64,000 bases of DNA, taken from a virus (taxonomy: Duplodnaviria; Caudoviricetes). The stretch covers positions 225,235 to 289,234 of the IMG/VR virus record IMGVR_UViG_3300035498_000877. One strand, given 5' to 3'. The position numbers were made by a program, and so were the translations under genes. The notes beneath the pieces were generated by a model. It did no database searches and was not told where the DNA came from. It saw only the letters and a list, made by a program, of their open reading frames with translations. Each line of letters begins with the position of its first letter. Within the stretch, counting starts at the first letter, position 1. This document shows, in pieces, positions 21,401-56,255 of the stretch.

Positions 21401-22228
21401 GTATCTAATTCATTCCATTGTCATGTATCAGAAGATATAGATCCAATAGAGAAACAAGATCTTGAGGGAAGATTCTGGAATCTATTTAATGGTGGTAAAA
21501 TACAATATGTCAGATACCCTATAAGCTATAATAAAGATGCTATAAAGACATTAGTTAATAGGGCTATGAAGAAAGGATATTATGAAGGAGTAAATCTTGC
21601 ATTGGGATATTGCGATGATTGTGGGCATCAAGAACTTGAAATGGATGTATGCCCTAAGTGCGGAAGTAAGAACCTTACTCTTATATCAAGAATGAATGGT
21701 GAAGGAAATTATGTTATGACATATTGCCATTCTAAAATTAATTGAATTGCTGGGAGTTCCTTAGAGCCTAAATAACCGCAGCTAGTAGTGATACATAGTG
21801 TAGCAGATAGTATAACGACTATCGGATGGTAAAATCATTTAGGATTGGATAATCATAAGCAGCGAAGATACTGAATACAGTATAACGTTCAACGACTATC
21901 GACCAGCTATAGTGTTCGAGAAATACGGCACCAATATAGTCAGTAGAGTACACCCTAAGCTAATGAGGGATCTAGAAGTGGAATGTCTAGATGGTGAACT
22001 GGAAGTGGTTAACTAAGAAGATATAGTCTCAACTGTGTAATTTTTATATTACACACCTCATGTTTGAGATAACATGTTGTCCTATGAGAGTAGGAGCTGC
22101 ATTAAGTTGCGATATACATTTTGCGAATGTATATGAAGAAATTGTATTTGTCATATTCAAGAGTTCATGGAGATACTAGATTGAATGATGCTAAGATGGC
22201 TGAGATAGCTGATAGAAAAAGCATGTAA
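18427..22228 (+). CDS. nrdD: Class III ribonucleotide reductase; exons 18427-20124, 20408-21700, 22145-22228; two inteins (1024-aa precursor, about 743 aa mature)
   Basis: ATP cone, YVHD, N|CCL, QYGG, PVLFPKL, SPMG|CRAFL, TPAESL|C, CDDC/CPKC, SRMNG|YLSYSRV glycyl-radical loop restored by splicing. Confidence 0.93.
18997..19422 (+). mobile_element. Mini-intein 1 in NrdD (142 aa)
   Basis: Begins CLSRSTKF, has VTPNHRW block B, ends VWCLDVEEDHSFLLEYGIPTGN before Cys; removal restores TMN-CCL. Confidence 0.9.
20125..20407 (+). mobile_element. Group I intron (283 nt) in nrdD
   Basis: Exon end ATGGGT pairs with IGS GCCCAT; TCGACTA/GATAGTC P7 pair; ends ...TAATACG before TGT AGA (CR). Confidence 0.9.
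20915..21331 (+). mobile_element. Mini-intein 2 in NrdD (139 aa)
   Basis: CFTGDT start, ECTPDHPF, VYNIEVEDNNNYF...LVHN before Cys. Confidence 0.92.
21701..22144 (+). mobile_element. Group I intron (444 nt) in nrdD, directly after the glycyl-radical Gly codon
   Basis: GAATGGT pairs with IGS GCCATTC; AATTGCTGGGA, GCAGC, TTCAACGACTA, AAGATATAGTC; ends ...AATTG before TAT TTG. Confidence 0.92.
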
Positions 22229-22239
22229 TTTTATTTTTG

Positions 22240-22280
22240 ATAGAGGGGGAGCTTAGTACTCCCCTCTATTTTATTTTTTA
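22240..22280 (+). terminator. Intrinsic terminator after nrdD exon 3
   Basis: ATAGAGGGG/CCCCTCTAT plus T tract. Confidence 0.65.
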
Positions 22281-22326
22281 ATTATATATTATAAATATAA
22301 TAAAGAATATTAGGAGGTACTATTAT

Positions 22327-22782
22327 ATGCATAAAAATCTAGAAGTTGAGAATAAAGCTATATATGGGGAATATTGTGATAAGATGTATGGTCAGAAATA
22401 TTGCATATGCTTGATTAGAGAATTTCGGAAAATAAGAAGAAGGAAGTGCAAAGAAGTTCATGAATTACATGAGATATTAGAATATCAGAAAATATATCCT
22501 ATAACAGAATCTAAATATGAATTAATACGTAAACAAGGATTAGATTACTATTTTAATTCATTCAGTAATTATCATAATCATGGTGTTCATAATATTTTTG
22601 AGAATAAAGAAGAAGATATGATGCATCCATTATTAAATCTCAATATGGATTATGCTAAGAAAAAACTACATACCTTAGAGGTAGAATTGTGTTATATAAA
22701 TGCAAATATTAAATCAATAAGTAAAATTCTAAGAGGTAAAAAAGAATTTACTAATAAAAAATTAAAGGAGGAAACAAAATGA
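22327..22782 (+). CDS. Hypothetical protein
   Basis: ORF with AGGAGG RBS and upstream TATATTAT. Confidence 0.7.
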   Translation: MHKNLEVENKAIYGEYCDKMYGQKYCICLIREFRKIRRRKCKEVHELHEILEYQKIYPITESKYELIRKQGLDYYFNSFSNYHNHGVHNIFENKEEDMMHPLLNLNMDYAKKKLHTLEVELCYINANIKSISKILRGKKEFTNKKLKEETK

Positions 22783-23738
22783 TTTTGCATGATAAAATCA
22801 AACTAAAAAATCAAAAGAGATTCACTGAACAATTCAAAAATCCAGTTCAACGTATTATTGATCGATGTGATGAAATTGATGAAATAATTAGAGGAGTTGA
22901 TAACTCACTAATGAATGATGATCCAGATAATGTGGATTATTATAAAACATCTATACAGGTACAAAATGCATTAGCAGTATATGATAAGGCCTTGGTATCA
23001 GTAATATATGATGCTGGATATCTGGCTAATAATATTAAGATATTACAAAAAAGATTCTTAAAACTTCATATATCTAAAGAAAAGAGTGGAGAGATAATTG
23101 GACCTATGGTTGATTTCCATAATCAATTATTGGAATGCAGATCTATAATATCTTCATATATAGTGAATGCTAAAAATCTATATTCACATGCATTATCTGC
23201 AATGCCACTGCAAACCTATAAAGATTTAGTACATTATAATGATGATGAACATGATGAGTTTGATGAAGATCAGGATTGCAATGATGAACAACTGGCAGAA
23301 ATGAAAGTACAACAGTTTGGGACTAAGAATAAGAATGGTTGTGTATATAATGGAGAAACATTAGTTGGTGAAGCTACAATAGATCCAACTCCAAATAATA
23401 CACATACAGTTCGTCTCAGAACAGATTTTGGAACTATTGAAAGTTATTGTAAAAATATAATAGATCCAATAAATGAATTGGTACATGCAATGACAGATGG
23501 TAATACTTCTCACAATAAACAAAATGACATCTTTAAAGAATCTATAGATGATGAAGATGAAGATGAGGATGATGAATATGATAAATTTATGTTAAAATAT
23601 ATTGATAAATCTGTGGCTGAATGTAGGAATATGGATAGATATAATAAAGATAATGTTCATGATGATAGTAGGTATTTTAGTAAATCTGCATATGAAGCAT
23701 ATCTTGAGAGTCGTTCATTAGAAGACGAGGAGGAATAA
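22779..23738 (+). CDS. Hypothetical protein
   Basis: 319-aa ORF, ATGA overlap with the previous gene. Confidence 0.75.
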   Translation: MILHDKIKLKNQKRFTEQFKNPVQRIIDRCDEIDEIIRGVDNSLMNDDPDNVDYYKTSIQVQNALAVYDKALVSVIYDAGYLANNIKILQKRFLKLHISKEKSGEIIGPMVDFHNQLLECRSIISSYIVNAKNLYSHALSAMPLQTYKDLVHYNDDEHDEFDEDQDCNDEQLAEMKVQQFGTKNKNGCVYNGETLVGEATIDPTPNNTHTVRLRTDFGTIESYCKNIIDPINELVHAMTDGNTSHNKQNDIFKESIDDEDEDEDDEYDKFMLKYIDKSVAECRNMDRYNKDNVHDDSRYFSKSAYEAYLESRSLEDEEE

Positions 23739-23760
23739 TATTCAATAAAGGAGGTAATAT

Positions 23761-24354
23761 ATGTTCAATCCGTTAATACCAGAATTACTTAATAATACAC
23801 CACCAAATTATGGTCCTAATAGCAAGATTCAAATAATTGAAAAAATTGCAAGTGGTGATACGAAAGTATGGGATAACTTAAATTATCCCACTTTATCAGA
23901 TATTGAAAAATTATATCCTGATTTATATAAACATATAATATCGGGGCCAGTACCAAATAATATATTTATAATAGAATCAATTTTATATGAACATGAATTT
24001 GGTATAAAAATTCGTATGAAGAATAATAGTGGAATTAATCATTACCAGTGTGAATTTCTTCAACAAATGTATAGTGGAAATGATAGATTTCCAGATGGCC
24101 TATTAACTATGATTGATACTGAACTAAATAAAATATATGAAGCTAGCCCAACAGCTGCTGATTCAGTATACCAAAAAATTCGCAATAAATTTCGAATAAC
24201 AATATTATCTATGCTAGCTCATAATACTACCTTTACTAAAACTGAGGTCAATTTCTATATTATATTAGATTATTTGAAAACATTAATTCCTCCAGACTAT
24301 AATGCAATTCCTCCATTTTCTACCAGTATTAAGGAATATTATATGGATGAATAA
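23761..24354 (+). CDS. Hypothetical protein, YPT..NHYQC paralog family
   Basis: NYPTLSDIEKLYPDLYKHI...NHYQCEF. Confidence 0.75.
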   Translation: MFNPLIPELLNNTPPNYGPNSKIQIIEKIASGDTKVWDNLNYPTLSDIEKLYPDLYKHIISGPVPNNIFIIESILYEHEFGIKIRMKNNSGINHYQCEFLQQMYSGNDRFPDGLLTMIDTELNKIYEASPTAADSVYQKIRNKFRITILSMLAHNTTFTKTEVNFYIILDYLKTLIPPDYNAIPPFSTSIKEYYMDE

Positions 24355-24475
24355 GACACATGAAATTGAAGATGGATGATTCATCCATCTTCTTTTATCG
24401 TATTTATTTTACTATGTATTATATATTCTATATATATGTAGCTAATAAATAATAAATTATCTAAGGAGGTAAAAC

Positions 24476-24982
24476 ATGAATAACTATAATAATATGCCAA
24501 ATACAAATGAGGAGATCATAAATGCAATCAATAATAAATTTGATGATATTTATAATAATCTTTCGTATCCCACGGTTTCTGAAATAACATTACGTTATCC
24601 AGCTTTATACAAACATATCAAAATTGAAAATGAATTGAGATGGGATATTATATGGCCTGCATTTATTTATTGTAATGAAGTTAGATGTTGGAATCATTAT
24701 CAATGTGAATTCCTAAATGATAATATTGCAGGTGATGCTACTGATGATAATCATAATGGTATAATCACAAAGATTGAACAGGCAATATCAGAAGCATGTT
24801 GGGCTTCTGATGAGTTCAACAAAGATAAAGAGGCTAATGATAAGCTAACAGGATATCTAACTCAGGCAAAATCAATATTAGCTTCAATGAGAGAACATGA
24901 GATATCATTCAAAGAGACAGAAAATAGATTAAATAAGTTTCTTGAAGATTTTAATAACCGTAAAAAGGAAAGAGAGGAATAA
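24476..24982 (+). CDS. Hypothetical protein, YPT..NHYQC paralog family
   Basis: SYPTVSEITLRYPALYKHI...NHYQCEF. Confidence 0.75.
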   Translation: MNNYNNMPNTNEEIINAINNKFDDIYNNLSYPTVSEITLRYPALYKHIKIENELRWDIIWPAFIYCNEVRCWNHYQCEFLNDNIAGDATDDNHNGIITKIEQAISEACWASDEFNKDKEANDKLTGYLTQAKSILASMREHEISFKETENRLNKFLEDFNNRKKEREE

Positions 24983-24997
24983 ATCCTCCCTTTCTTT

Positions 24998-26344
24998 TTA
25001 TACATTTTTAACCCAAGTTACATATTTTTCATTTATTGAGATCCATCCAGCACCACTCTTAAGCTTTCCAAATCCATTCTTTTCTTCAGTAATTGTATAT
25101 TGAACATTCTTGGTTACCGATCCATTTGCAGTATATGATGTTCCAGCACCAGTTCTAATACGTAATCCATCAACTATTACCTTTACTATATATGGAACTC
25201 TCTTTGTATTAGTTGTATCTGCTGTAGCTTTTGTATCAGTATGATGTCTATTATAGATTTCAGTTCCATATCCAGCTCTTCTAGTTTTTACTGTATCACT
25301 TTGATCAGCTGGTTTCTCAAATTGAGTAAGTACAGCATCAGAAGCAACTTTAATAGAAGTAGCTGTCTTTAATGTTTCCATAAGAACTTTATAACCTTGA
25401 AGTTCTAACCATAGATAATCACACTGCATATCAAAGTCACCAATTGACTTATTGGCAGAATTTGCATATGATAACAATTTCTGTTTTCTAGTATAATATG
25501 TCCATTGAGCTAATCCATATCCAGCTGAATCTTTCACAAAGTTTGTGTATGTTCCGTTGTCTACTGCATTAGTATATTCGTCATCTGTATAACCCAATTT
25601 CTTTTCATATGAATTCTGGAGGTTATTAGATTTAATACCAGACTCAGCATAAATATTACCCATTAATCCAGCAGTTGCATATTCATTTAATCCTTTACCA
25701 ATAAGGAAATTCCACATTTTTAATTCATTATTAGCATCATCTGATACAGTATTCTCTGCAGATACAGTATCATCATTATTAACAGGATTAGTTGCTTTAA
25801 CTGTCGTAGCAGTTGGGGTTGCTAAGAATGCATTTACTGTTTCAGCAATTGTTCCCATATTATCATAGAAGAAACCACCAGGGCAAGCTTTATTTTTAAA
25901 CCATCTATGTGCAGTCATATTCTGTTTATCCACTTGGCCGATTAATGATTTATCGCCTTGCCATAATAATTTAGGAATACCATTTCTCTTACATATATCT
26001 ACAATCAAGTTGATTAATGAAGTATATGCTTCACTTGATGGCATATAATCAGGTGAACTTGTTATAGATGCTACTTCAATAGTTACAGCCCTATTATCAT
26101 TTGATCTACTAGAAGAACACCAAGATCTATTTGCTTCATCTACATATAGTGCAATACGACCATCAGATCCTATTCCATAGTTAGAAGATGCTCCTCTATT
26201 TGGATCTATAAAGATATTACCTAATGTTTCTACTGTACAGTTACCTGCCATAGTATGTATAGTAATTGTATCTATTGTATGATTTCTAGGCTTATCACAA
26301 TTTGGACTTAATTTTGTATAACTAATCAAACTACTATTACTCAT
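24998..26344 (-). CDS. Endolysin: Amidase_2 + phage-tail-lysozyme-like + SH3-like domain
   Basis: TITIHTMAG, ASSNYGIG, AVTIEVA, HRWFKNKACPG; GLMGNIYAESG, GYGLAQWT, FEKPAD; LRIRTGAGT...GKLKSGAGWI. Likely start is ATG 26344. Confidence 0.88.
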   Translation of the reverse strand: MSNSSLISYTKLSPNCDKPRNHTIDTITIHTMAGNCTVETLGNIFIDPNRGASSNYGIGSDGRIALYVDEANRSWCSSSRSNDNRAVTIEVASITSSPDYMPSSEAYTSLINLIVDICKRNGIPKLLWQGDKSLIGQVDKQNMTAHRWFKNKACPGGFFYDNMGTIAETVNAFLATPTATTVKATNPVNNDDTVSAENTVSDDANNELKMWNFLIGKGLNEYATAGLMGNIYAESGIKSNNLQNSYEKKLGYTDDEYTNAVDNGTYTNFVKDSAGYGLAQWTYYTRKQKLLSYANSANKSIGDFDMQCDYLWLELQGYKVLMETLKTATSIKVASDAVLTQFEKPADQSDTVKTRRAGYGTEIYNRHHTDTKATADTTNTKRVPYIVKVIVDGLRIRTGAGTSYTANGSVTKNVQYTITEEKNGFGKLKSGAGWISINEKYVTWVKNV

Positions 26345-26450
26345 CTTTTTCGTCATCTCCTTTGTTATTACTAATCTCATTTATAAAGTTCTCATCATAT
26401 TCTTCAGTCTTTCCAGCATCAATATTTTCAATATCTGTCATGTTGATCAT
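26337..26450 (-). CDS. Small acidic 37-aa ORF overlapping the endolysin start
   Basis: AAGGAGGTG RBS; MINMTDIENIDAGKTEEYDENFINEISNNKGDDEKDE. Confidence 0.45.
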   Translation of the reverse strand: MINMTDIENIDAGKTEEYDENFINEISNNKGDDEKDE

Positions 26451-26562
26451 CACGATCACCTCCTTTTAAATAAACGTACCTATTAAATAGAATATCAACC
26501 GACTTACTAATAACTTATCTATTGAGAAAATATTTAAAAATAATATGTAAAGGAGTGTAATT

Positions 26563-27864
26563 ATGTTAAACAGTATAAAAGAAATGATCAAGCAAAAACA
26601 AAGTCTTATGGAAGCATCTTCTTTGATATTTGATGATGCAAATGGACTTAATATTGAAGATCTTATTGTATTAGGTGAAGAGACTACAGAAGAGCCTGTT
26701 ACAGAAGAAGAGATGGAAGATGATAATGACAAAGAAAAAGATAAACCTGAAGAGAAGGAACCAGAAGCAGAGCCAGAGTCAGAACCAGAAACAAATATGA
26801 TGGATGAGCCAGTAGAAGATGATTTACCTGCTCCTGAACCTGATGAAGTACCAGCTGGTGATAATATGCTTGATGAGCCAATCGATGGACCTGTTGATGG
26901 AACAGGAGAAGTATCACCCGAAGGAGATCCATCTATAGATCCAATTGATGATATACTTAGTGTATCAATAGATCTTAGAACTAATACATTGAATGATACA
27001 TTACCAATACCTCCAGCAAATGCAGCTGATGCATTGCCATCTGAAGATGATGATTCATTATTATCTCAAAAAGTTGATAGTGGATTTGGTGGAGAAGATG
27101 ATGATACATCTACATTAGTTCCTGAGCAGGAAGGAGAACTCGATACTACTGAATCAGAATCTGAAGAAGAATTAAGTATTGAATCAAAAATAGCTAAATT
27201 GAATAATACTACAAGATTGCTTCAAGAGTTTAGAGGATTTAGGGATGTTGGAAATCCAGAAAGACATATTGAAGATATGGATAGAAGACCCGATGGTAGA
27301 TTTGCTAATTCTCCATTAGGACAAGCAGCTATAAGTAAAGATGCTATGGATAAATATCACAGATTAATGGGTGATCTACCTGATGAAATCGTCGATAATG
27401 ATGGAACAGATTCATTGCCTGATGAAATAACAGATAAATCTGAATATGATAAGCCTTTGACTGCAGTGCAGCGATTAAGAAATCGATATGGAAAAGAATG
27501 TGATGATATATTAGGTGAGGAATGTGGTGAATCTGATAGTGTAATTGAATCTATTGAAAATATATTCAATGACGATATCTTCACCGAAGAGATTTCATTA
27601 GGTGATGGAGATAATAGTCAGAATCAAGATACTCCTCCAGATGCAAACAACAATGGAGAAAATTCTGTTACAGCTGCTGTACGTGATAAGGTGAGTGAAT
27701 CTCAACCTGATGAAAGTACCGGAGATGATGATCTATCAGATGGATTAGAAGACGATCTCAGTGGTGCTGATGAAACTGTTAATAAGAGTGATATATTCAG
27801 TAAATTGAGTAATCTCACAAAGAACCTTGAAGATATCAAGAAAGATATAATTTCAAATAAATAA
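26563..27864 (+). CDS. Highly acidic protein, possible head scaffold/internal protein
   Basis: D/E/P-rich low-complexity ORF; function is inference. Confidence 0.5.
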   Translation: MLNSIKEMIKQKQSLMEASSLIFDDANGLNIEDLIVLGEETTEEPVTEEEMEDDNDKEKDKPEEKEPEAEPESEPETNMMDEPVEDDLPAPEPDEVPAGDNMLDEPIDGPVDGTGEVSPEGDPSIDPIDDILSVSIDLRTNTLNDTLPIPPANAADALPSEDDDSLLSQKVDSGFGGEDDDTSTLVPEQEGELDTTESESEEELSIESKIAKLNNTTRLLQEFRGFRDVGNPERHIEDMDRRPDGRFANSPLGQAAISKDAMDKYHRLMGDLPDEIVDNDGTDSLPDEITDKSEYDKPLTAVQRLRNRYGKECDDILGEECGESDSVIESIENIFNDDIFTEEISLGDGDNSQNQDTPPDANNNGENSVTAAVRDKVSESQPDESTGDDDLSDGLEDDLSGADETVNKSDIFSKLSNLTKNLEDIKKDIISNK

Positions 27865-27984
27865 CATGTAAAGAAGAAGGAGAATTATCTCCTTCTTCTT
27901 TTTTATCGTATATTTTATGTATTAATTTATATATTCTATATATAGTAAGATAGAAACAATAACTTTCAAAAGGAGGAAAATAAA

Positions 27985-29682: not shown

Positions 29683-29698
29683 GCCTCTCTTTATTTTT
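29662..29698. terminator. Bidirectional terminator
   Basis: AAAAATAAAGAGAG/CTCTCTTTATTTTT between convergent genes. Confidence 0.6.
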
Positions 29699-31016: not shown

Positions 31017-31153
31017 ATTTTATTTTTCCTCCTTTTATTTCATTAAATACATCGTTAATAAATTATCATAATCTTAGTGGATGATGTATTTAATTAGTTT
31101 ATTTTCAACATGCCTATTAAGTACAATATATATTTATAAAAAGGAGAATTATT

Positions 31154-32299: not shown

Positions 32300-32308
32300 T
32301 GAAGGGAA

Positions 32309-35392: not shown

Positions 35393-35591
35393 TAAGTAGG
35401 GGGGATTAATATCCCCTCTATATTTTTATTATTTTAATAAAACGAATAAAATTTAAGAGGGTGACTGATTTACTACAAATTTTTAAGTATTAAAAATATT
35501 ATAATTACATCTATCGGAATTTGACATAATAGCCTAATATTTTTGATAAAATAACTTTATAACATTTTAAAAATAGAAGGGAGAAACTATT

Positions 35592-36898
35592 ATGAGTAAC
35601 AAAGTACTTGGGGGGGGGGTTCATTAAAATCCCTAATTAATATAATTAGAAATGGTAATGATGATAAATATGCTGATTTATTAAAATATGGCAATAAAGC
35701 TATTAGTTTAGGCAGAAAAGCTGATACTAATATTGGAGATCATTCTTCAGCTGTAGGATATAATAATGCAGCATTGGGAATATATAGTCATGCTGAAGGT
35801 GTTTATACTACTGCAAAAAATCCATATTCTCATGCTGAGGGATGCGGTACTACAGCTGGTTCAGATGATAATGATAGTGATGAGTTTAGTTATAATACAT
35901 ATGATGGTACATGTTATGATGAAGATGGATTTTCTAGACGCTCACAACATGCAGAAGGAGAATATACCATAGCATTACATGGAGCTTCTCATACTGAGGG
36001 ATGTTATACTATGGCAATAGGTTTATGTTCTCATGCTGAGGGTGCAGGATGTGAATATGAAATAGGCCCAGAATCATCCCTCAATCTATCAGGAGATTAT
36101 GCTTATAGTAAAGCTGTTGGTGATTATTCACATGTAGAAGGATTCCATAATCTAGCAGCAGATTATCAACATGTGCAAGGACATTTCAATGAATGGAAAA
36201 GTGGTGGACATCATTATGGTGTTTATGGTACTGCATTTATAATTGGTAACGGGACATATGATGGTTCAACAAAAGAAATTACAAATAGTAATGCATTCAG
36301 AGTTACTTATAAGGGAGAGACATATGCTCAAGCTGCATATTCTGCAACTGGTGCTGACTATGCTGAGTACTTTGAGTGGTTAGATGGTAATCCAGATAAT
36401 GAAGATAGACGTGGTAAGTTTGTTACAATGGATGGTAAAAAGATAACCTTTGCTAAAGAAGGAGATTGGGTATTAGGAATAGTATCTGCTAATCCATGTG
36501 TACTTGGTAATACTGATACTGAGTGGCAAGGCAAATTCATGAAAGATGAGTTTGGATCATATATAAAAGAAAAGTCAATTCAAACTATTAAATTACCTAA
36601 AAAAGTAACTGATGCAAATGGTAATGTCACTTTTGAAAAGATTGACCAAGAAGTAGAATTCTATAAAGTAAATCCTGATTATGATCCAGATAAAGAATAT
36701 GTACAACGTGATGATAGACCAGAATGGAGTGCTATTGGTATGCTAGGAGTACTTGCTGTATATGATGATGGCACATGTGAAGTAAATGGATTCTGCAAAT
36801 GTAATAATAACTCAATAGCTACTAAATCAGATACAGGTTATAGAGTAATAGAACGTGTTACAGATAACATTGTAAGAATAGTATTTAGTGTAAGATAA
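35592..36898 (+). CDS. Tail fibre/spike with SHAEG (YadA-head-like) repeats and C-terminal peptidase-G2-type chaperone; frameshifted at a G10 tract
   Basis: RBS + ATG 35592 reads MSNKVLGGGVH*; the -1 frame is open from the tract into ORF 35774-36898; seven xxH(A/T/V)(E/Q)G repeats; GADYAEYFEW...LGIVS...RPEWSAIGMLG. Confidence 0.8.
35610..35619 (+). repeat. G10 homopolymer in the fibre-gene 5' cassette
   Basis: GTACTT-G10-TTCATTAAAATCCCTAAT. Confidence 0.9.
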
Positions 36899-41362: not shown

Positions 41363-41425
41363 TTATACCTCTAATCTATTATTTTTAAAGATATATTATA
41401 TTATTATAAAGGAGGTAAGATTATT

Positions 41426-43507: not shown

Positions 43508-43552
43508 AAAGATTATTAAACATGAACAATAAAGCAATTAATTAAAGGAGGT

Positions 43553-44317: not shown

Positions 44318-44357
44318 GGATGATTATAGATTTTATTTTAAAAGGAGGAAATATGTT

Positions 44358-45059: not shown

Positions 45060-45124
45060 AAAATAAAAGCATGTAAGTCAATTTTACATGCTTTTATTTT
45101 TTTATATAAGGGAAGGGATTATAT

Positions 45125-45880: not shown

Positions 45881-48800
45881 TGTTACAAGTTAATGCACTA
45901 AAACCAACCGAGAAACCTGTTGAACAATTAAAACGTTGGAAGTACAAGAAACATGCATTTCCAAATGGAGCTGAATCATATTGGATTAAATGGAAATTAT
46001 ATCCAGATGATGCTAGATTTTTCTCTGCACCGAAAACGATGATAATTAAGTTCGACAAGGAATTGTCACACGTTAACAATGAAAACATCTCTGCACTCAA
46101 TGAGTGGAAAGTATCTAAAATATCCTATTCCACTTACCTACCAACTATGTGTGAAGAGTTGAATTTCTTTGAAACAATGTATGATCAGGAAGGAGAACTA
46201 ATCACAGCACTATTTAGAATTAAATACCTTATAGATGGAGATAATGTATCTTATACTATGAAGAACTTTGAAGCATTCAAAGATATTTGTTATAAGACTA
46301 TATTCACAGACTCCATCAAGGAAAAGATCATCAAGATGGTAGAAGAAAATTATGTTGATGACATTGAAGCTGAAAATATTAAAAACATGAAAAACCCAGA
46401 TATGTTATCTATTATGCAACGCAAAAAGAAATCATTAGAATTTCTGAATGTCCATGTAAAAGCAATGCTAAAGATATCATTCTGTATAAAAATATTGTCA
46501 TTTGTAATTAATCATTTTGCAGTAATGAGATCTATCAACATACAAAAGAATATAGATATCTTTTATCAATTCTATGTAGATACATTCTATATATTTGATT
46601 TTGATTTTGATATCTACAATAAGATATACGCCTGAAACACACGGGCATACTTCTTTAATTGCCGGAAGTTCCTTAGAGCCTAAATAACTGCAGCTAGTAG
46701 TGATATATAGTGTAGCAATATACATAACGGTATATGGATAGTAAAATCATTTAGGATTGGATAATCAAAGGCAGCTAAATAACTATTAATGATACGAATT
46801 ATATATTATAAAAGAAAGGAGGTTAAATATCATGAAAAATAAAGATAAATGTAAATTGATATGTCAAGATTGCGGAGCAGAATTCTACTTACAATATGGA
46901 TGGGTTAAGAAATTTCCATCTAATCATCATTGGAGATGTAAACATTGTAGAATCGAATATCATAAGTTATGGCATAAAAATATGGATCCTGAAAGAAAAG
47001 CTGCAGTATCTAAGAAAATGTCAGAAAGTGCAACAAAACGTTGGAAATCAATGACAGATGAAGAATATAAAAATATGTGCGAAGCTATGTCTAAAGGTGA
47101 TGTAAAATATTGGTCTAATTTGCTTGATGAAGAATATGAAGCTAGATGCAAAGTCAATCAAATGATTCAAGATAATTTATCTGATGAGAAAAAGAAAATT
47201 CGCTCAGAAAAGATATCAAAAGCTCAGGCAGAACGATGGAAAAATATGAGTGATGATATGTATGATTACATGTGTGAAAAATTATCCGAAGCAGCCCATT
47301 TGTATTGGGATAATATTACAGATGAAGAACTGAATAAACGAAAAGAAGATATGTCAATTAGATCTAAATCATTCTGGAAGAATATGACTAAGAAAGAATT
47401 TGAAGAATGGTGCATCAAACAAATGAAACGTCGAAAGGAAAACTTTACAAAGAATGAATTAGATTTTATGAAAATCTTGAATTTGTATAATATTAATTAT
47501 GAAGCACGTGTTTGTAGTACAATAATTCATCCAGATTTTTATAAATTATTTCCTAGAAATCCAATAATGGATAATGAACATGTAGTTCCATACCATGAAT
47601 GGGATTTCAAATTAAATTTAATAGATAAAAGTATATTTATTGATGTTGATGGGAGTATACATGATCCTCAAAAAACTAATTATCAAGTTGAATATTATAC
47701 TGGTAAGATGTTTAAAAAATCAGATTATATTCAATTCAATGATTCTCAAAGACCATATCAAACTGATGGTTTAGATTCATATATAATATTAGTTTATGAT
47801 GATAATTTAACTATGGATTGCATAGTTAAAAATGTATCCAATGATGATACAATGAAATTATCTGAATTTATTAGTTTGATTTATGCAAATAATTTGACAG
47901 ATAAAGAATTAAAAGAAATTATAAAAGTATCAAATAATAGTTAGAAGTTCAACGACTATCGACCAACTATAGTGTTCGAGAAATACGGCACCAATATAGT
48001 TAGTAGAGTACTTACCAAGCTAATGGGTTATATAACAATGGAATGGTTATATGTAAAAGGAAATGGGAAGCTAGAATATTAGTGATATAGTCTCAACGAC
48101 CAATAGGTCCTTCATACTTGAAATAGTATGTCGTTATGTGAGAGCATAAGCTGCATTAAGTTGCGATATACATTTTGCGAATGTATATGAAGATAATTGA
48201 TGTGGAGAACAAAGTAAACAGTTCTTACAATTTTAACAAAGCCATATTCCAACAACAAGAGATTGACTTTCAGTCTCACCTCTCATAATTGCGGAGAACT
48301 CTCGTTAAGTCAATACTACCAAATTACTATAGTGATATAAGTAATGGCAAGAGGTAATATCTCAAGGTATGGTAAAAAGGTATTGAATAGAGACAACCGT
48401 CGCAGCTAAATTAATCTAATAATTAATAGTTATATATTATTGAAAGAAAGGAGGTAATCAATATGATTAAAAAATTAAAAATTAAAAGTAACAATTCAAC
48501 CAAATCTACTAAAGATTCAGAATCATCAATGGAAGAACTATTGAAGTGTTCAGCATTTTCAGTTGATGAAGAAGCTGACTATATCAAAAAATTCTCATCA
48601 TTAACACCTGAGAAGAAAATTGCTTTACTTAACTATATCTTCAATGAATCTATTCCAGAGCAATTAAATATTCCATTTAAGAATCCATTCTATATTAGAG
48701 ATAAAGAATTTCTTAAAATGTATGAAGATGGATACAAAAATGAAGTATATGAAATGATAGTCATGAATGATTTGAAGAAAAGTGATTTAATGGCTACTCG

Positions 48801-50411
48801 TACATATGTAAGCAAAAAGGTAGATCCAAGATTTTATGAGTTATTTTCACCCAATCCAATATATCCAGCATTTGGAATGAGCCCAACATATTCATGGGAT
48901 ATCTTAGTACGTACTATAGACGGAGATATATTAGTTGATGTTGATGGTCCAATCCATAATGAAGAACTTGTTACCGATACACTCACTTATGATGACAAGT
49001 ATCAACTTAAAATTATTGATTATATTCGTCTTAAAGAATTACAGAGGTTATATCAAACTGATGGGCTACAAGCATATACAATAAGATGTATTAATGGAGA
49101 AATTACTGATGAAACTCCTGTAATTGATATTTATACAAATAAAGAAATGACTTATAAAAGTTTCATTGGATACTTAGAATGGACAAGTTTATCAATTGAA
49201 ACACGATCATGCATAATACTTGATGATGAAGAAGAATTAGATTAATATGTTCAACGACTATCGACCAGCTACGTATATGGACTAATAACCTATACAATGT
49301 AGTCAGTAGAGTAAATCCCAAATCACCAATGGGGACTGTAATTCTTGGAAGGAAACAGAGTAATTTGAAACGAGAGGCCCCGTATATTTAATAGTAGAAT
49401 ATACGGGGAAGATATAGTCTCAACAACCAATAGGTTCTTCAATTGTGGAATTCAATTGTCGTATGCCGAGAGGCATAGCAGAGTTAAAAGCTCGATATAC
49501 ATGTTGTGTATGTATATGAAGATATTTGTGAAGGCAAGGATAAAAGTATTATTATCGATCAGATACTCCGAAGGAACTGCGTAATCGATAATTTCATCAA
49601 ATTTTCCCTACCTAAGACATGGAATAAGGTTAAAGAGCAACCAAATGAGAGAGTACTATCATTCTTATGTAGTATTGTAAATACACATATATCAATTTTC
49701 ATTATGCAGGTGTTTAGAAGAAATCTCATCGAAACTTCAATAGTTCCTGATGTTGATGGAAATAGTAAGAATGATAGATACAGAGCTTCTAAGATGAAGC
49801 TAAATGAAGAATATGTAATCACATGTACTATGGATATGAATAATCTAACTAAGGATCTGTTTAAACGTTACGAAAGTGAAATATCTATAGAGGAATTAGA
49901 TTACTATCGAAGAAATCTAAAACCTAGTAGATTACATCAGCTGATGATAGAAATTTATTTCTTTAATTATACATCATCAGCATCAGAGTTTGCACTACTT
50001 CGAAATATGGATTGGTACAAGCTATTATTAATCATGAGAAAAGATATCATGAGAAGATTTAATGTTACAAAAGATTCGTTATTAGATTCATCACTGGTAC
50101 TATTATTGACATCTAATATTGAGGAAACACCAGTAGGTGAGAAAATGTATATTAAAGATACTAAGTATCTCAAAGACAATGAAACCTACAACTATCTTGT
50201 TGATCACTATTACAGTACTATCGTAAGTATCAACGAGGACATCATCAAGAAGTTTTTAATTACCTTCGTCAATAGTAAATATACATTCGTATTATATGAA
50301 CACAAAGAACTATTTGGCGAAGAGGTCTCAATGAATAAGAGAGATCTAATAGATCGTTTATTAGACTTCCTTGTTTTAGCAAATACCAACATATCGTTGG
50401 ATAACTTTTAA
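45880..50411 (+). CDS. Probable sigma-like promoter-specificity subunit of non-virion RNAP (AR9 gp226/phiKZ gp68-like); exons 45880-46633, 48200-48263, 49529-50411 (566 aa)
   Basis: Splicing gives one frame: ...YNKIYA|YVENKV...QQQEI|EGKDK. The N-terminal IKFDK..ISALNEW.VSK.SY pattern resembles my recollection of AR9 gp226; it lies near beta-prime. Confidence 0.65.
46802..46809 (+). promoter_or_regulatory. TATATT(A/C)T putative phage early promoter motif (representative of 11 copies)
   Basis: Also at 7574, 15535, 22285, 24422, 27930, 41392, 48433, 52478, 57749 (+) and 61552-61559 (-), each shortly upstream of an RBS; resembles the phiKZ early consensus TATATTAC. Confidence 0.6.
46832..47944 (+). 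CDS. Intron-encoded endonuclease (Zn ribbon, Trp-containing helical repeats, Vsr/EDxHD-like domain)
   Basis: CQDC/CKHC, repeated W(K/S/D)(N/S)(M/L/I)(T/S/L)DE units, EWDF...IDVDGSIHD. Confidence 0.7.
   Translation: MKNKDKCKLICQDCGAEFYLQYGWVKKFPSNHHWRCKHCRIEYHKLWHKNMDPERKAAVSKKMSESATKRWKSMTDEEYKNMCEAMSKGDVKYWSNLLDEEYEARCKVNQMIQDNLSDEKKKIRSEKISKAQAERWKNMSDDMYDYMCEKLSEAAHLYWDNITDEELNKRKEDMSIRSKSFWKNMTKKEFEEWCIKQMKRRKENFTKNELDFMKILNLYNINYEARVCSTIIHPDFYKLFPRNPIMDNEHVVPYHEWDFKLNLIDKSIFIDVDGSIHDPQKTNYQVEYYTGKMFKKSDYIQFNDSQRPYQTDGLDSYIILVYDDNLTMDCIVKNVSNDDTMKLSEFISLIYANNLTDKELKEIIKVSNNS
48264..49528 (+). mobile_element. Group I intron B with nuclease ORF
   Basis: GAGAT pairs with IGS GTCTC; TTCA can pair with 3' exon TGAA (P10); core elements present; terminal G at 49528. 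Confidence 0.88.
48463..49245 (+). CDS. Intron-encoded endonuclease, paralog of 46832
   Basis: SWDI...VDVDGPIHN...QRLYQTDGL matches EWDF...IDVDGSIHD...QRPYQTDGL. Confidence 0.7.
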   Translation: MIKKLKIKSNNSTKSTKDSESSMEELLKCSAFSVDEEADYIKKFSSLTPEKKIALLNYIFNESIPEQLNIPFKNPFYIRDKEFLKMYEDGYKNEVYEMIVMNDLKKSDLMATRTYVSKKVDPRFYELFSPNPIYPAFGMSPTYSWDILVRTIDGDILVDVDGPIHNEELVTDTLTYDDKYQLKIIDYIRLKELQRLYQTDGLQAYTIRCINGEITDETPVIDIYTNKEMTYKSFIGYLEWTSLSIETRSCIILDDEEELD

Positions 50412-50431
50412 ATGAAAGGATAACACAATAA

Positions 50432-51127
50432 ATGGAATACCTGAACATTTATTTCGATTCAGAATTTACTGGATTGAGAAAAGATACAGAGCTTATTAGT
50501 TTAGGATTCGTATCAGAAAGCGGGGCTACTTTCTATGCTGAATTCAATGACTTTAGTATGAAATATGTAGATGAATGGATAACAAAGAATGTTATAGATA
50601 ATCTAGTTATGTTCATAAAGAGTGTACGGGAATTAGGATTAGTAGATCCATATACTTGCTTTAAGAAAACTATCAATCATACTAATCATTATAACACTCA
50701 GATGTTATCAAATAAAACTAATATTGCTAATGAGCTACAAGATTGGCTAAACAATGAATACGCATTAGCAAATAAAGAAATCAGATTTATATCAGATTGC
50801 TATGCATATGACTGGATGTTATTATGTGATTTGATGTGTGATGATGGATGTGCAATCAATACTATTCCTAATACATCATATATTCCAATTGATCTATCTA
50901 CTATGCTGTATATGAATCAAATTGATCCAGATGTCAACAGAGAAGAATTTATTGGAAATGAAACATGTAATTCAATTGAAACAACAATGTTGAAGTTGAA
51001 ATTATTTGAACATACTAGTTTCAAATCAATTAAACATAATTCATTATGGGATGCATATGTAATCAAAGCAGCATGTGAGAAAGTAATTAGTATGCCCAGA
51101 GTAGTACCATGGGGTAGTTTGGGATAA
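50432..51127 (+). CDS. DEDDh 3'-5' exo(ribo)nuclease (Rv2179c-like)
   Basis: YFDSEFTGL, YDW, HNSLWDA. Confidence 0.85.
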   Translation: MEYLNIYFDSEFTGLRKDTELISLGFVSESGATFYAEFNDFSMKYVDEWITKNVIDNLVMFIKSVRELGLVDPYTCFKKTINHTNHYNTQMLSNKTNIANELQDWLNNEYALANKEIRFISDCYAYDWMLLCDLMCDDGCAINTIPNTSYIPIDLSTMLYMNQIDPDVNREEFIGNETCNSIETTMLKLKLFEHTSFKSIKHNSLWDAYVIKAACEKVISMPRVVPWGSLG

Positions 51128-51206
51128 ATAATTAAAATATAATAATGAGGCATTCATTAATTTGAATGCCTTATTATTTTAAAATCTTTTTAGGAGATAT
51201 AAAGGT

Positions 51207-51407
51207 ATGAAGAATGGTAAGAAGATTACTAGACAGCAGAGAAATGTATTGATTAAAAACAAAAGAGATCCTGAGAAATACCTATTTATCAAAGAAATTG
51301 TTAGGCAGCCAGGTAATGGCAGTCTTAACAAAGTTGACAAAAGTGTACATACAATGATTTTTTGGAACACAGAAACTGAGTGCCAGGAATCATTTGATGT
51401 AATATAA
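51207..51407 (+). CDS. Small basic hypothetical protein
   Basis: AGGAGA RBS; MKNGKKITRQQ start typical of small Firmicute phage proteins. Confidence 0.6.
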   Translation: MKNGKKITRQQRNVLIKNKRDPEKYLFIKEIVRQPGNGSLNKVDKSVHTMIFWNTETECQESFDVI

Positions 51408-51432
51408 AAAGCAAAGAAAGAAGGAATGCATT

Positions 51433-54400
51433 ATGCGAATTAAGTTTTCACGTATTAATTTCGAAGAAATGTGTGCATGGGACATTATTAATGACAAAGG
51501 ATTTTTAATTAATGATACACCATTTGCAGACATTGACAAATCAATACGTAACATGGATGGACCTAGATCACCACGATTTGGTACTACCTATGGAGATACA
51601 AATGAGTTCATGGACAGATACAGATGTGATTGTGGTAAAACATTTGGAGCAGCATTTGAAGGAGAAAAATGTCCTCACTGTGGACATATTGTAGAGTACA
51701 AAGATGTAGATATGTTATACACGGCGTATTTGAATTTTTATCCGTTTCACGTAATCAACCCGCTGATGTACCATAGGCTGCAGTCGGCATTATCTAAAAA
51801 GAACTTAGAAAATATTATATCAAATGAAAATATAATTACATCTGCTGGTATAATAAGAAAACATAATGATCAGATAGAAGTAAAGAAATCTATGTTATTG
51901 TATCATAACATTGGATTGAAAGAATTCTATGATAATTATGAAGAGATTATGGAGTATTATAAATCTAAGAGAAAGATAAAAGCTGATTTAATAGATCAAC
52001 TAATTAGAGATAAAGATTTAGTATGGACATCCAAGATTCCTGTATATAGTACTACATTAAGACCAATGGGAATATCATCTGAATCTTATTTCTTTAATTC
52101 ATTAGATAAACAGATATATCCATTGACAAATATCTCACTGAATCTGAGAAAAGCATCTGCCATTGAAGTTCCATTATATTTGTATCAGGCACAGATGAGA
52201 GTTAATGAATTATGGAATCTTAACTTTTCTCTTATTGATGGAAAATATGGATGGATACGATCTCAAGTACTTGGCGGTGAGTTCAATTATTCGAGTGAAT
52301 TTAAATGGCCCGTCACTTCGTAATTGCTGGAACGCCTTCAGAGCCTAAATAACCGCAGCTGGTGGTGACATGCAGTGTAGCAGATAGTATAACGACTATC
52401 GGATGGTAAAATCATTTAGGATTAGGTAATCATAAGCAGCTAATTAACTATCTTAAATTATAAATTAAATCTGGTAATATATTATAAAAGAAAGGAGGTA
52501 GATATCATGAAAGATAAATTAACTAAAAAATTACTTAAAGATCAAGAAAAAGAATTAAACAAAAGATCTATGGAATTATTTGGCAAATGTTATGCTGAGT
52601 TAATGATTGCTGAGATTACTAAATTAGATCAGTATATGAAAGATTTAGCCAATCCACAATGGAAACGAGTGATAATCGATAATATAGTTACTTCTTATGA
52701 AGTTAATAATGTTGGTGAAGTCAGAAATATAAATACTGGGCATATTAAAGAACACCAAATAAATCAAGATGGATATAACCGCATTTCAATGTGGTATAAT
52801 AATAAACAAAGGAAATTCCAGAATGTTCATAGATTAGTTGCAATAGCTTTTATTCCTAATCCAGAAAATAAACCTCAAGTAAATCATAAAAATGTCAATA
52901 AACAATGTAACTGGGTTGGTAATTTAGAATGGGCTACTGCTAGCGAAAATCAAATTCATGCATATATTCATGATCTTCATATTCCAAAAACTGGTACTGA
53001 ATATTGGAATTGCAAACATACAGAAGAACAAGTTCATCAAGTATGTAAATTGCTTGAAAGATCTATTCCAATAAATAAAATTGCTAATAAGCTAAATGTT
53101 ACTGAAGCATTTGTCATTGGAATAAAATATGGTAATTGGGGATATATTCGTGCCCAGTATGATATTCCTCCATCAAATACTTATGGAGATAGAACCCAAG
53201 AGCAAGTTGATATAATAAATAACTTGATAAGGAATGGGTGTAGAAATAGGAAATATATACTTAGCCAAGCAGGTTTACCAGATACCAAGACTAATATATC
53301 ATACGTGAAATATCGTATTAAAATTTATAATGAGATAGCTAAAGGTTCAACGACTATCGAATGCTCAGATGCTGGAAGAAATACCACATCATAAGTACTC
53401 GTTACCCCCTAAGCCAATGAGGGCCAGTAAGCGTGAGCAGCTGGAGTAATGGGAAGTGAAGTGCTCTATATATTTGGTAATAGAGTATATAGGGAAGATA
53501 TAGTCTCAACTACAGAAATGTACTTCATACTTGAAATAGTATGTCGTCTACTGAGAGGTAGAGAAGCATTAAGTTGCTGCTAGTATGTTGCGAATACTAG
53601 TGTAAGATATTGCGTGCAGTTATAGTTCTTGATCCAACTCTTCATATAGATGAAGTAGATGTATCATATAAACAATTTATAGTTCAATATAAAGGATTAA
53701 TAATAAAACATATTATAGCAGATAAAGGATGGACTGTTACAAAGACATCAAATTATTTAGCATCTAAATTCAAATTTGATGAATATGTATACAGTATCAT
53801 GTGTAAAATAATTGAAGAAGAATGCCCGAGGTTGATACTCAACCGCAATCCTCAACATGTGGGATAAACTGACCTAATTGCGGGAATATCTTGTTAGACT
53901 TATACTACTAACTTTAGATAGCAATATACTAAAGGGCAATGGGTAATTCCAAAGGTATAGTAAAAAGGTATAAGATAGAGACAATCGACGCAGCGAAGTA
54001 TCTATTAATAGATATGAGTTCAACGACTATCCCATTGGATTCTATATGAATCAACAGGAGTACGGCTACAAGCTAATGGTAGCGGGTGAAATTCCCTTAA
54101 TTGGAAAAGGCAGCTCTAATATTATTAGAGAGATATAGTCTCAACTGTAGAAATACACTTCATACTTGAAATAGTATGTCGTCTACTGAGAGGTAGAGAA
54201 GCATTAAGTTGCTGCTAGTATGTTGCGAGTACTAGTGTAAGATAATGACAATTACATTTGGTAGTATTTTACTAATGAAAATACGGAAAGTAAAGATGGA
54301 TGCAAATGACTACACATTAGCGATTCCATCAGCAATTTTACCGGGTCAACAGGCGGCCCATCCTCTCTTATATGCGGGAAAGCATTGTGCCTAACAATGG

Positions 54401-56255
54401 CCTGGATAATACTGGGTGCCTAAGAGCTTTAACTACCAAGTTATATTAGTGATGATATGATGGATGAAGTAACTATTCATGTATGGTAAAAAGGTTAAAG
54501 ATATATGGTCAATCCGCAGGGAAGATAATTGATTATCAACTATCACCCTCAACGACTATCCCTGTGAAGGGAGTAGATTCTAAAGCTAATGTAGAATCGA
54601 AATGAGATGTCATGATAAATTATTATGAAAGATATAGTCTAGTATCCTAGCGAATAGTTAGGGAAGTTCATAAGAGAACTGCACAGAGTTGCGACCTGTG
54701 TGAATAGTACGCTTAATGCTGACTTAACGTCTTCCCAGTCGAGGTCAGCCTAAACTCTTCTAATTGCGGGAAACTTATAATAGGATTCTATATACCAAAT
54801 TATCATGGTGACATAGATAGTGGCAAGAGGTAATATCTCAAGGTATGGTAACAAATATGGAATTATCAAGTAATCGACGCAGCGAAGTATCTAGTAATAG
54901 ATATGAGTTCAGAGACTATCGAAAACATAGTATGAATAGTGATATTCATATGAAGAAGTGAGTAGAGTAGGGCCATATAAAATATATGGTGGGGTTGGGA
55001 TCCCTTAAATCCAAACGGAGAGTTCTATGAGAGTATGAGTAGTTATCCACACTCCCATAGTGAAGATATAGTCCTTTAAATAATTATTATTCTGATTTAT
55101 TATCTTTATATTCTAATGGTGGCAACAAAGTAAATCCTGGAAAATATTCCATTTTGATTTTAGGATTTGTTTCATTGATATATAAAGATATAGTATTATA
55201 TAAACCTTTGTAAAATTCTTTAGCTTTGTCAGAATGACGATCTTGAGTACGAGCATTTTGATCATTCAATACTGCACTATTTAATATGTATGCACGCTTT
55301 TCATCATTAATATAAAATGAAAACCAGCCTTTGTATGGTTTACCTGTACGCACAGAATTCTTTATTATATCTTTTGAAGTTCCAACAAAATTACCAAATA
55401 GTTTCATTGATTCAGATAAGATTATTTGCTGTTGATTCATATTAATTGATATGATTGGTTCTGAACGAAGTCGTTTACCATTAATGGTCATTCCATATGT
55501 TCTAATTGATGGATATAATCCTTCACCTGTACTACTTAGATTATAGCCATTCTTTATTGTGTCATACTTATTAATGAAATACTCTTCAGCAGCTTTATGA
55601 TTGTATTTATTTGTTTCTGCAATTGGATACATTATAAAATTATTGAATCCTTCATTAGCCATAGCTTTTATGATAGGTCGATTTGCATGTTTACTGGTGT
55701 TTTTATTCTCCTTAATACAGTTATATTCATATAAATAATGCGACGCTCGTTTCTTAAGTGGATTTAATGGGTTAGGATTTCTAACATCTGTCCATTTGGA
55801 ATAAACCGAACCTATATATTTCTGATGGTTAGTTTTATTCTCAATACAGTAAATATATCCATATGGTGGTGAACCATTTGGGGTTTGTTCTTTAAACTTA
55901 TTGGGGATAGGTTTGTCAATAAGAAATTGTTCCATTAGTTCACGATTTTGTTTTAGTTTTTCTTCACTTGCCATATTATTACATCCTTTCTTAATTTCCA
56001 CACTTCAGGTGGGATAGATTTTTAGGTATCATATTAATAATATGTAAGTGAAAAATAAGGTTTTATTAGAATAATTAATTATCCCATGTTGACGGAGATG
56101 TACTTAATAATTTAGCATTAACAATGGAAGAATTTTGGGAGATGTTTGATGGATTTTCCCCTACTAACATGTTGATAGATAGAACTAATTCATCTATCAA
56201 ATATGATTGTTCTGCATTGGAAAATGTTACGTTAGCAATCTTATCAGATAATTAA
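51433..56255 (+). CDS. RNA polymerase beta-prime N-terminal subunit (non-virion type); exons 51433-52296, 53613-53852, 54248-54346, 54712-54724, 56089-56255 (460 aa)
   Basis: Zn finger CDCG..CPHC; spliced motifs GGEFNYSS|RAVIV, LNRNP|TI, LPG|LNADF|DGDVLN; the exons total 1383 nt in frame. Confidence 0.92.
52297..53612 (+). mobile_element. Group I intron 1 of beta-prime, with HNH ORF
   Basis: Exon ends in U; IGS GCCCG (one mismatch); core elements present; terminal G before CGT GCA GTT. Confidence 0.87.
52507..53394 (+). CDS. NUMOD4-HNH homing endonuclease
   Basis: YEVNNVGEVRN, VHRLVAIAFIPNP, VNHKN, NLEWAT..EN..H; the 3' end runs through the P7 element (STTIE). Confidence 0.9.
   Translation: MKDKLTKKLLKDQEKELNKRSMELFGKCYAELMIAEITKLDQYMKDLANPQWKRVIIDNIVTSYEVNNVGEVRNINTGHIKEHQINQDGYNRISMWYNNKQRKFQNVHRLVAIAFIPNPENKPQVNHKNVNKQCNWVGNLEWATASENQIHAYIHDLHIPKTGTEYWNCKHTEEQVHQVCKLLERSIPINKIANKLNVTEAFVIGIKYGNWGYIRAQYDIPPSNTYGDRTQEQVDIINNLIRNGCRNRKYILSQAGLPDTKTNISYVKYRIKIYNEIAKGSTTIECSDAGRNTTS
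53853..54247 (+). mobile_element. Group I intron 2 of beta-prime (395 nt)
   Basis: ATCCT pairs with GGGAT; AATTGCGGGAA, TTCAACGACTA, GATATAGTC; ends GATAATG. Confidence 0.9.
54347..54711 (+). mobile_element. Group I intron 3 of beta-prime (365 nt)
   Basis: GGGT pairs with GCCC; ATGCGGGAAA, CAATCCGCAG, TCAACGACTA, AAGATATAGTC; ends TAGTACG. Confidence 0.9.
54725..56088 (+). mobile_element. Group I intron 4 of beta-prime with antisense GIY-YIG ORF
   Basis: GCTGACT pairs with GGTCAGC; GTCGA pairs with 3' exon TTGAC (P10); TTCAGAGACTA, AAGATATAGTCC; ends CCCATG. Confidence 0.88.
55087..55974 (-). CDS. GIY-YIG homing endonuclease (antisense within intron)
   Basis: GYIYCIEN...YIGS, R, E, GYN; AAAGGA RBS before ATG 55974. 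Confidence 0.85.
   Translation of the reverse strand: MASEEKLKQNRELMEQFLIDKPIPNKFKEQTPNGSPPYGYIYCIENKTNHQKYIGSVYSKWTDVRNPNPLNPLKKRASHYLYEYNCIKENKNTSKHANRPIIKAMANEGFNNFIMYPIAETNKYNHKAAEEYFINKYDTIKNGYNLSSTGEGLYPSIRTYGMTINGKRLRSEPIISINMNQQQIILSESMKLFGNFVGTSKDIIKNSVRTGKPYKGWFSFYINDEKRAYILNSAVLNDQNARTQDRHSDKAKEFYKGLYNTISLYINETNPKIKMEYFPGFTLLPPLEYKDNKSE

Follow-up and report, generated by a model that had tools for sequence, protein, structure and literature searches.

This analysis concerns a family of related group I introns in an uncultivated jumbo phage whose multisubunit RNA polymerase (RNAP) genes are split. The phage is represented by a metagenomic assembly, a 289,234-bp IMG/VR virus record rated 100% complete, and the window analysed here comprises its bases 225235-289234 (64,000 nt). 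The family has 14 members genome-wide, eight of them inside the window, in at least eight host genes that include nrdD, a sigma-like gene, RNAP beta and beta-prime genes, gyrB, terL and a polymerase gene. The host genes are essential, and the insertions fall within their conserved motifs. Along every member the nearest neighbour within the family switches, often with sliding windows at 97-100% identity to the current partner. We consider it probable (about 0.7) that this is a lineage-specific group I family whose copies exchange short patches with one another within the genome, filtered by the need to splice. An earlier note on the window had read its introns as a mosaic family recently exchanged between different genes; the exchange holds up, while the family proves to extend beyond the window and to leave out nrdD intron 1.

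Members outside the window came from a BLAST comparison of the region with the whole genome, which located the same blocks in further introns; the earlier note had suggested such a search. The P7 strands GACTAT and ATAGTC are paired in all 14 members, and a search for the two strands at the correct spacing returns exactly these 14 introns. No open reading frame (ORF) is present in nine of them. One candidate, nrdD intron 1 (~20119-20400), was rejected as a group I intron of another type that shares no module with the family. Two types of 5' block are distinguished below under the labels alpha and beta, which were coined in this analysis. The members inside the window, in window coordinates, are as follows.

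10535-10936, minus strand: intron F of an RNAP beta gene, found by BLAST to beta-prime introns 3 and 4; 8-bp P1 with U.G
21701-22144, plus strand: nrdD intron 2, 444 nt, no ORF; 7-bp P1 GAATGGT/GCCATTC, omega-G at 22144
46634-48199, plus strand: intron A of the sigma-like gene (sigma intron A), 1566 nt; 370-aa ORF 46832-47944 in the P6 loop
48264-49528, plus strand: intron B of the sigma-like gene (sigma intron B), 1265 nt; 260-aa ORF 48463-49245
52297-53612, plus strand: beta-prime intron 1, 1316 nt; HNH ORF 52507-53394 in the P6 loop (HNH_3, E = 1.8e-7)
53853-54247, plus strand: beta-prime intron 2, 395 nt, no ORF; Rfam 34.6 bits
54347-54711, plus strand: beta-prime intron 3, 365 nt; Rfam 38.1 bits; 5' block like that of intron F; followed by a 13-nt exon, 54712-54724
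54725-56088, plus strand: beta-prime intron 4; core to ~55075, Rfam 55.2 bits; 7-bp P1

Those outside the window, in genome coordinates, are the following.

~57.25-58.8 kb (57255-58806): terL intron A; HNH ORF upstream of the core
~85.7-86.7 kb, minus strand: introns B1 and B2 of the polymerase gene
101.2-102.0 kb (101195-102000), minus strand: intron C of an RNAP beta gene
104.7-105.1 kb: intron D of an RNAP beta-prime-like gene with DYDGD; exact junctions not placed
212.8-213.2 kb: intron E of gyrB

The shared blocks on which the earlier note had built its case are all present. Exactly three copies of the start of the alpha-type 5' block, GAGCCTAAATAAC, were found, all on the plus strand, at 21764 (nrdD intron 2), 46676 (sigma intron A) and 52341 (beta-prime intron 1), and the match extends to 122-nt copies at 21745-21866, 46657-46778 (84%) and 52322-52443 (88%). 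Sigma intron B and beta-prime intron 4 have in common the GGCAAGAGGTAATATCTCAAGGTATGGTAA block, as an exact 31-mer, and both blocks attributed to nrdD intron 2 and sigma intron A were recovered, the 3' end with an exact 45-mer. Beta-prime introns 1 and 2 differ in their 5' halves, which are of different sequence types, and are 95% identical over 117 nt at their 3' ends (53496-53612 vs 54131-54247), with a 72-nt exact run. The P9 tract of beta-prime intron 1 (53496-53612) therein represents what appears to be the clearest recent conversion tract of the family.

Other exact runs measure 58 nt (intron C and beta-prime intron 2), 53 nt (B2 and beta-prime intron 1), 51 nt (intron E and beta-prime intron 2) and 50 nt, and they link introns in different genes, on opposite strands and up to 190 kb apart. 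The nearest neighbour of beta-prime intron 1 is first nrdD intron 2 and later beta-prime intron 2; its alpha-type 5' block includes windows 100% identical to nrdD intron 2 and B2. The neighbours of sigma intron A run from nrdD intron 2 to intron D, back to nrdD intron 2, to B1 and again to nrdD intron 2, a mosaic of three introns (7:44 vs 50:6, p = 4e-16), and those of B2 from nrdD intron 2 or beta-prime intron 1 to sigma intron B and then to intron C. The same holds for other members: nrdD intron 2 combines an alpha-type 5' block with P7.1/7.2 like that of introns E and A and a P9 end identical to that of sigma intron A, and sigma intron B joins a beta-type 5' block like that of B1 to P7.1/7.2 like that of B2. 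Beta-prime intron 2 has a beta-type 5' block, the 58-nt run shared with intron C in its P7.1/7.2, and the P9 found in terL intron A, beta-prime intron 1 and intron E, while intron F shares its P4-P6 block with beta-prime intron 3 (43-nt exact run) and its P7.1/7.2 block with beta-prime intron 4. Tabulated over 12 modules, the alleles are combinatorial.

For statistical analysis each intron was cut at conserved anchors into three domains, which were aligned separately: the P4-P6 region forms the 5' domain, the stretch from P7 to P7' the middle one and P9 the 3' domain. Helix labels were taken from the Rfam alignment. With these borders fixed beforehand, 177 of 2526 Fisher tests on intron triplets pass Bonferroni correction. 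In the best triplet, beta-prime intron 1 sides 39:0 with B2 in the 5' domain and 2:39 in the 3' domain, where it sides with beta-prime intron 2 (p = 8e-21). A triplet permutation test places 278 of 1092 triplets at its floor; since that floor (p = 1/2001) is by itself insufficient for 1092 tests, the exact Fisher tests at pre-set borders were used instead. Maximum-likelihood trees of the single domains contain strongly supported conflicting clades, and each domain rejects the trees of the other two (log-likelihood differences of 96-155; approximately unbiased (AU) test, p from 1e-4 to 1e-60). The module shuffling proposed earlier is thus matched by strongly incongruent domain trees.

On these alignments, common descent with uneven rates, or convergence, cannot yield such a mosaic. 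Shared descent under strong selection, or convergence on ribozyme structure, with no exchange at all, does account for the fact that the P7 strands, AATTGC and GGTAAAA are conserved throughout the family as well as in introns from distant phages. However, the shared tracts span hairpins that are free to vary through compensatory changes, some pairs are 100% identical over 50-72 nt in a helix that mostly differs in others, and the Fisher triplet tests and the extreme tree incongruence refute this explanation, which we regard as having almost no chance of being correct.

A metagenomic origin raises a different concern. The record is an uncultivated viral genome, and its exact repeats of 50-72 nt are long enough to tangle an assembly graph, so that mis-assembly or consensus collapse across short repeats might imitate exchange. 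This seems very improbable. The exons are all in the correct order and frame and colinear with an intronless homologue, the pattern involves 14 loci up to 190 kb apart on both strands, and an independently assembled relative shows it more weakly. Collapse may turn 98% identity into 100%, but it cannot create alternating neighbours.

Where the exchange takes place was addressed by comparison with 12 relatives totalling 567 kb, namely the complete genome G001 (292 kb), four partial genomes and seven metagenome loci, all ~68-70% identical to the source genome in alignable DNA. A scan of IMG/VR and metagenome contigs with beta-prime exon 1 gave no closer relative, that is, none above 80% amino-acid identity (~70% nucleotide identity). 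Cultured phages are only distantly related, with beta-prime proteins 25-28% identical to those of phiR1-37 and vB_BpuM-BpSp. Within the source genome, 23% of the 40-mers of the family have a copy (at most three mismatches) in another intron, as opposed to 0.5% in G001. For the parts from P7 to the 3' end, the figures are 21.9% within the genome and 1.1% in the 567 kb of the relatives. For almost every module the closest match is a paralogue hosted by a different gene of the source genome, rather than an intron at the same site in another phage. Neither of the two outcomes that the earlier note had named as refuting its reading, same-site closest relatives and congruent domain trees, was observed. 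These comparisons identify the partners as paralogues from the source genome and place the exchange after the split from all sampled relatives.

These figures bear on the possibility that the mosaic arises mainly from co-infecting phages, through homing and partial co-conversion from a module pool shared across the population. Site occupancy varies greatly among the relatives, endonuclease ORFs are present, and the alpha-type 5' block allele has one match in IMG/VR, in phage G002, where an exact 37-mer lies in the intron at the same site, flanked by exons only 72% identical at the protein level. We nevertheless judge this origin unlikely. The near-identical tracts have their partners in non-homologous genes of the phage's own genome, which makes the exchange ectopic whichever copy was the donor; near-identical 40-mers amount to 1% in the relatives and 22% within the genome; and the IMG/VR scan gave no match to the P9 allele that beta-prime introns 1 and 2 share with intron E. 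In their private core some lineages are nonetheless faithful to their site: intron E matches the G001 intron at the same gyrB site in P3 and P8, while its P9 is unlike that of G001 and is the 51-nt exact copy of beta-prime intron 2.

A further alternative is that whole introns were recently duplicated to new sites and then diverged unevenly, with no exchange between established copies. The sheer number of copies (14 in at least eight genes) and the occurrence of one lineage in different genes of two phages are in keeping with it, as is the 94% identity of the offspring introns of Bodo saltans virus (PMC5871332). In the present family, however, the best whole pairs reach 91%, 82% and 83% across the three domains and no pair is near-identical over its full length. 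Furthermore, relationships are reticulate rather than tree-like, a single tree for all domains is rejected by the AU test, and uneven rates cannot give strongly supported conflicting clades. We consider duplication without exchange improbable, more so than an origin from co-infecting phages. Since no full-length near-identical pair exists, the recent events are short patches (~30-130 nt), and no very recent whole-intron copy is seen among the family pairs of the source genome. This refines the earlier proposal of intragenomic spread to new sites: its recent part consists of patches, not of fresh whole-intron copies, and some private cores have stayed at their sites.

The movement of introns to new sites is more indirectly supported, by the varied insertion sites and by one lineage found in different genes. 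Across 13 homologues, the beta-prime gene has at least nine insertion sites; three homologues are intronless and one has at least seven introns. The latter, L045 (contig Ga0123353_10020461, 1078-8105), is a beta-prime homologue in at least eight pieces with at least seven insertions. The site of beta-prime intron 1 is also occupied in G002, and a G001 intron lies 14 nt upstream of it. This G001 beta-prime intron has the same P3 strand as intron C of RNAP beta and is identical to it at 43 of 47 nt (91.5%) from P3' to P8, whereas the RNAP beta gene of G001 is intronless at the intron C site. One lineage therefore occupies different genes in the two phages, and it bears different guide sequences in them.

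What is exchanged follows the architecture of the ribozyme. Exchange is confined to self-contained domains (the P4-P6/P5 region, P7.1/7.2 and the P9 hairpins), while the P1 guide sequence, both P3 strands and P8 are private to each intron. In the Rfam alignment, the P3 5' strand lies just upstream of the conserved AATTGC, beside the guide sequence, and the P3 3' strand and P8 directly precede the second P7 strand. The P3 duplex differs in every intron. Across columns 234-298 (P3' and P8), no window has a partner with at least 92% identity, whereas windows in P5, P7.1/7.2 and P9 often have one. Sharing of 24-mers is 6% in P3' and P8 and 43% and 47% in the flanking domains, a pattern repeated in G001 (4% vs 16% and 25%); because these windows overlap, the p-values are too small, although the effect is large and replicated in G001. 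Between hairpin alleles the differences are compensatory, and 11 pairs are altered on both sides. A swap of P3' and P8 would be selected against, because a P3' replaced without its distant partner would break a ribozyme in an essential gene.

The mechanism that we consider most likely for this short-patch exchange is as follows. Firstly, stretches of ~30-130 nt would be exchanged, repeatedly, by non-reciprocal homologous recombination, either through gene conversion or through template switching during recombination-dependent replication or break repair. Exchange would probably start in short core sequences common to all copies, namely AATTGC, the P7 strands and the hairpin junctions. Secondly, only products that fold into a ribozyme would survive, since the host genes are essential, and only non-crossover products would be viable, because a crossover between copies that are dispersed or inverted would cost the phage essential DNA or reverse its orientation. 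Finally, a whole lineage may occasionally move to a new site, where its guide sequence is then different.

Several observations weigh against this reading or limit its reach. The rate of sharing differs between lineages and is much lower in G001, whose internal sharing is weaker (3.8% vs 0.7%). The 37-nt run in G002 may reflect some exchange between phages or strong conservation of the module. The pairwise homoplasy index (PHI) is 0.44, as opposed to 0.67 +/- 0.01 in shuffled data (0 of 2000 shuffles), but is inflated by covarying helix sites and is given little weight. Tract ends do adjoin conserved columns (0.67 vs 0.57 +/- 0.02), in a test biased by the fact that tracts always extend through conserved columns. 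During metagenomic assembly, bubble-popping may have made some near-identical tracts identical. Moreover, single conversion events can be neither polarised nor dated, because no relative was found above ~70% nucleotide identity.

A bolder extension, which we offer tentatively, is that the family constitutes a natural modular ribozyme kit, in which a pool of domains is kept uniform by conversion while identity and target reside in a private guide (4-8 nt), P3 and P8 scaffold. If so, retargeting would need only a new guide sequence, since the 5' end is without P2, which would account for the colonisation of many catalytic motifs by copies without an endonuclease. Damaged copies in essential genes may also be repaired by conversion from paralogues, and the private P3/P8 tag would serve as a lineage marker for intron transposition between genes and between phages.

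By their sequence features, the members are group I introns, probably of the phage type (candidate members of subgroup IA2), and they are predicted to self-splice. Their 5' end is short and has no P2, and P7 is followed by a large insert that is probably P7.1/7.2. The Rfam group I model (RF00028) has 11 matches in the genome; beta-prime intron 4 (55.2 bits), terL intron A (55.8) and intron D (50.7) exceed its cut-off of 50, and seven further family members fall below it with E <= 0.006. The stretch from P7 to P7' measures 82-160 nt across the family, and beta-prime intron 4 has an insert of ~94 nt between the P7 5' strand and P3'. Consensus folding of eight ORF-less members recovered P7 and the P9 hairpins alone, because the alignment is too gapped. 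Among GenBank phages, a search for near matches gave a single hit, a 90-nt HNH stretch, and a search in distant mode gave partial 70-80% matches to introns of AR9/PBS1, Lak, Twort-like and Vibrio phages.

The internal guide sequences were said earlier to be specific to their sites. Across most of the window family this is borne out by pairing with the intron's own exon: nrdD intron 2, sigma introns A and B, beta-prime introns 2-4 and intron F each combine a P1 of 4-8 bp that includes U.G with a terminal G. The exception is beta-prime intron 1, where the search for P1 gave nothing convincing: the pairing is 4 bp long, and the splice site has U-A. For intron C, compared with the intronless G001 gene, no junction offers both U(-1) and a terminal G; the intron sits between GRHG and N of RNAP beta (locus L003). 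The intron calls in the beta-prime gene hold because its five predicted exons are colinear with the intronless genes of L006, where they form one contiguous stretch (6001-7383), L040 and L042. In G001, RNAP beta likewise runs unbroken across the intron C site. The insertion point of nrdD intron 2 is after the glycyl-radical Gly codon, in an exon with NRDD and Gly_radical domains, and its removal restores the glycyl-radical motif. Intron F is flanked by host exons 10937-14232 and 9358-10534, the downstream one with an Rpb2_6 domain, and a 64-nt exon (48200-48263) separates sigma introns A and B.

The intron ORFs have a history of their own. The ORF of terL intron A is an HNH_3 protein (E = 2.7e-10), whereas those of sigma introns A and B matched no Pfam family and are 34% identical to each other over 117 aa. 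In beta-prime intron 4, ~1 kb after the core holds an antisense ORF (55087-56001, minus strand) with a weak SegE_GIY-YIG match (E = 0.005), followed by the 3' splice site. In intron C the ORF encodes 127 aa, with a hydrophobic stretch at the N terminus and no recognisable endonuclease. Because the endonuclease ORFs are only 33-34% identical to each other, the ribozyme modules move independently of them; the ORFs appear to be old and not carried along with the modules.

Placement of the ORFs varies as well. In terL intron A the HNH ORF (57326-58381, locus L001) lies between P1 and the core, not in P6, and in the G002 beta-prime intron an HNH related to that of beta-prime intron 1 likewise lies upstream of the core. 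With related HNH genes upstream of the core or in P6, the endonuclease gene evidently occupies different loops of related ribozymes. Three sense-strand intron ORFs have in common a box, TATATTAT(A/T)(A/G)AAAGAAAGGAGGT, 6-8 nt before the ATG (46800-46831 in sigma intron A, 48429-48462 in sigma intron B and 52474-52506 in beta-prime intron 1), which looks like a putative shared promoter-like element with a ribosome-binding site.

Other features of the genome lie close to the family or resemble it in part. nrdD intron 1 and intron D (104741) are preceded by near-identical exon ends, ATGGGT, and nrdD intron 1, intron D and intron C have similar 5' ends (CCCATG or CTCATG, then TAAAAC), which hints at possible reuse of guide sequences across intron types. 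The nrdD exon between its two introns (window 20387-21745) carries a Hint/intein domain (PT-HINT, E = 1.4e-13), so that both the transcript and the protein of nrdD have to be spliced. A 60-65-nt cassette containing 10-11 consecutive G, 82-89% identical between copies and unrelated to the introns, stands upstream of several long ORFs (window 35574-35637 and 56344-56409; genome ~21.3, 95.6 and 107.8 kb).

The introns of this phage amount to a natural domain-swap experiment, in which replacement is tolerated in P4-P6, P7.1/7.2 and P9 but not in P3 and P8, presumably owing to the pairing of P3 with the strand beside the guide sequence. They also bear on how endonuclease-free introns multiply in jumbo-phage genomes. 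A practical warning for annotation is that the RNAP, nrdD, gyrB and terL genes of phages like this one are fragmented by near-repeats, which can also confuse assembly.

The closest precedent is phage T4, whose td, nrdB and sunY (nrdD) introns reportedly recombine in a spontaneous shuffling of domains. The T4 introns are reported to recombine via short shared core sequences into chimeric introns that still work. Common to both systems are related group I introns in different essential genes of one phage and chimeras with segments from paralogous introns. T4 has three introns, and its chimeras come from laboratory crosses or selections, whereas the present phage holds 14 natural copies that are combinatorial, lack deletions or rearrangements and have a mapped unexchanged zone (P1, P3 and P8). 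With 14 copies and 12 modules, it provides a large natural record of self-splicing intron recombination, a process otherwise shown mainly in T4 crosses.

In Bodo saltans virus, 'parental' and 'offspring' group I introns are described in the RNAP genes (Deeg et al. 2018, PMC5871332). There, too, related introns multiply in RNAP genes of one large virus, most copies are without an endonuclease, and high identity is read as recent spread. The difference lies in the unit of transfer: whole-intron seeding at 94% overall identity in that virus, module exchange with no pair similar throughout in the phage described here. Intron-rich jumbo phages form a third point of comparison, with many group I introns in nrdD, terL, polymerase and RNAP genes and some HNH or GIY-YIG endonucleases; introns in the RNAP genes of AR9/PBS1 give a partial 79.5% match to the present family, and Twort-like phages give partial matches as well, so that with partial matches of 70-80% the ribozyme type appears to be the same. 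Jug phages are credited with ~18.5 group I introns per genome (PMC12880540), and Bastillevirinae are a further intron-rich example (PMC11878797). The accessible parts of these papers deal with counts, splicing and endonuclease colonisation, and contain nothing on ribozyme-module recombination or a private P3/P8 zone. A literature search turned up no paper on a mosaic this large and combinatorial in natural phage group I introns, nor one on a private P3/P8 zone. Set beside these systems, the present phage offers a large and clear example from nature of an established process, to which it adds a structural refinement.

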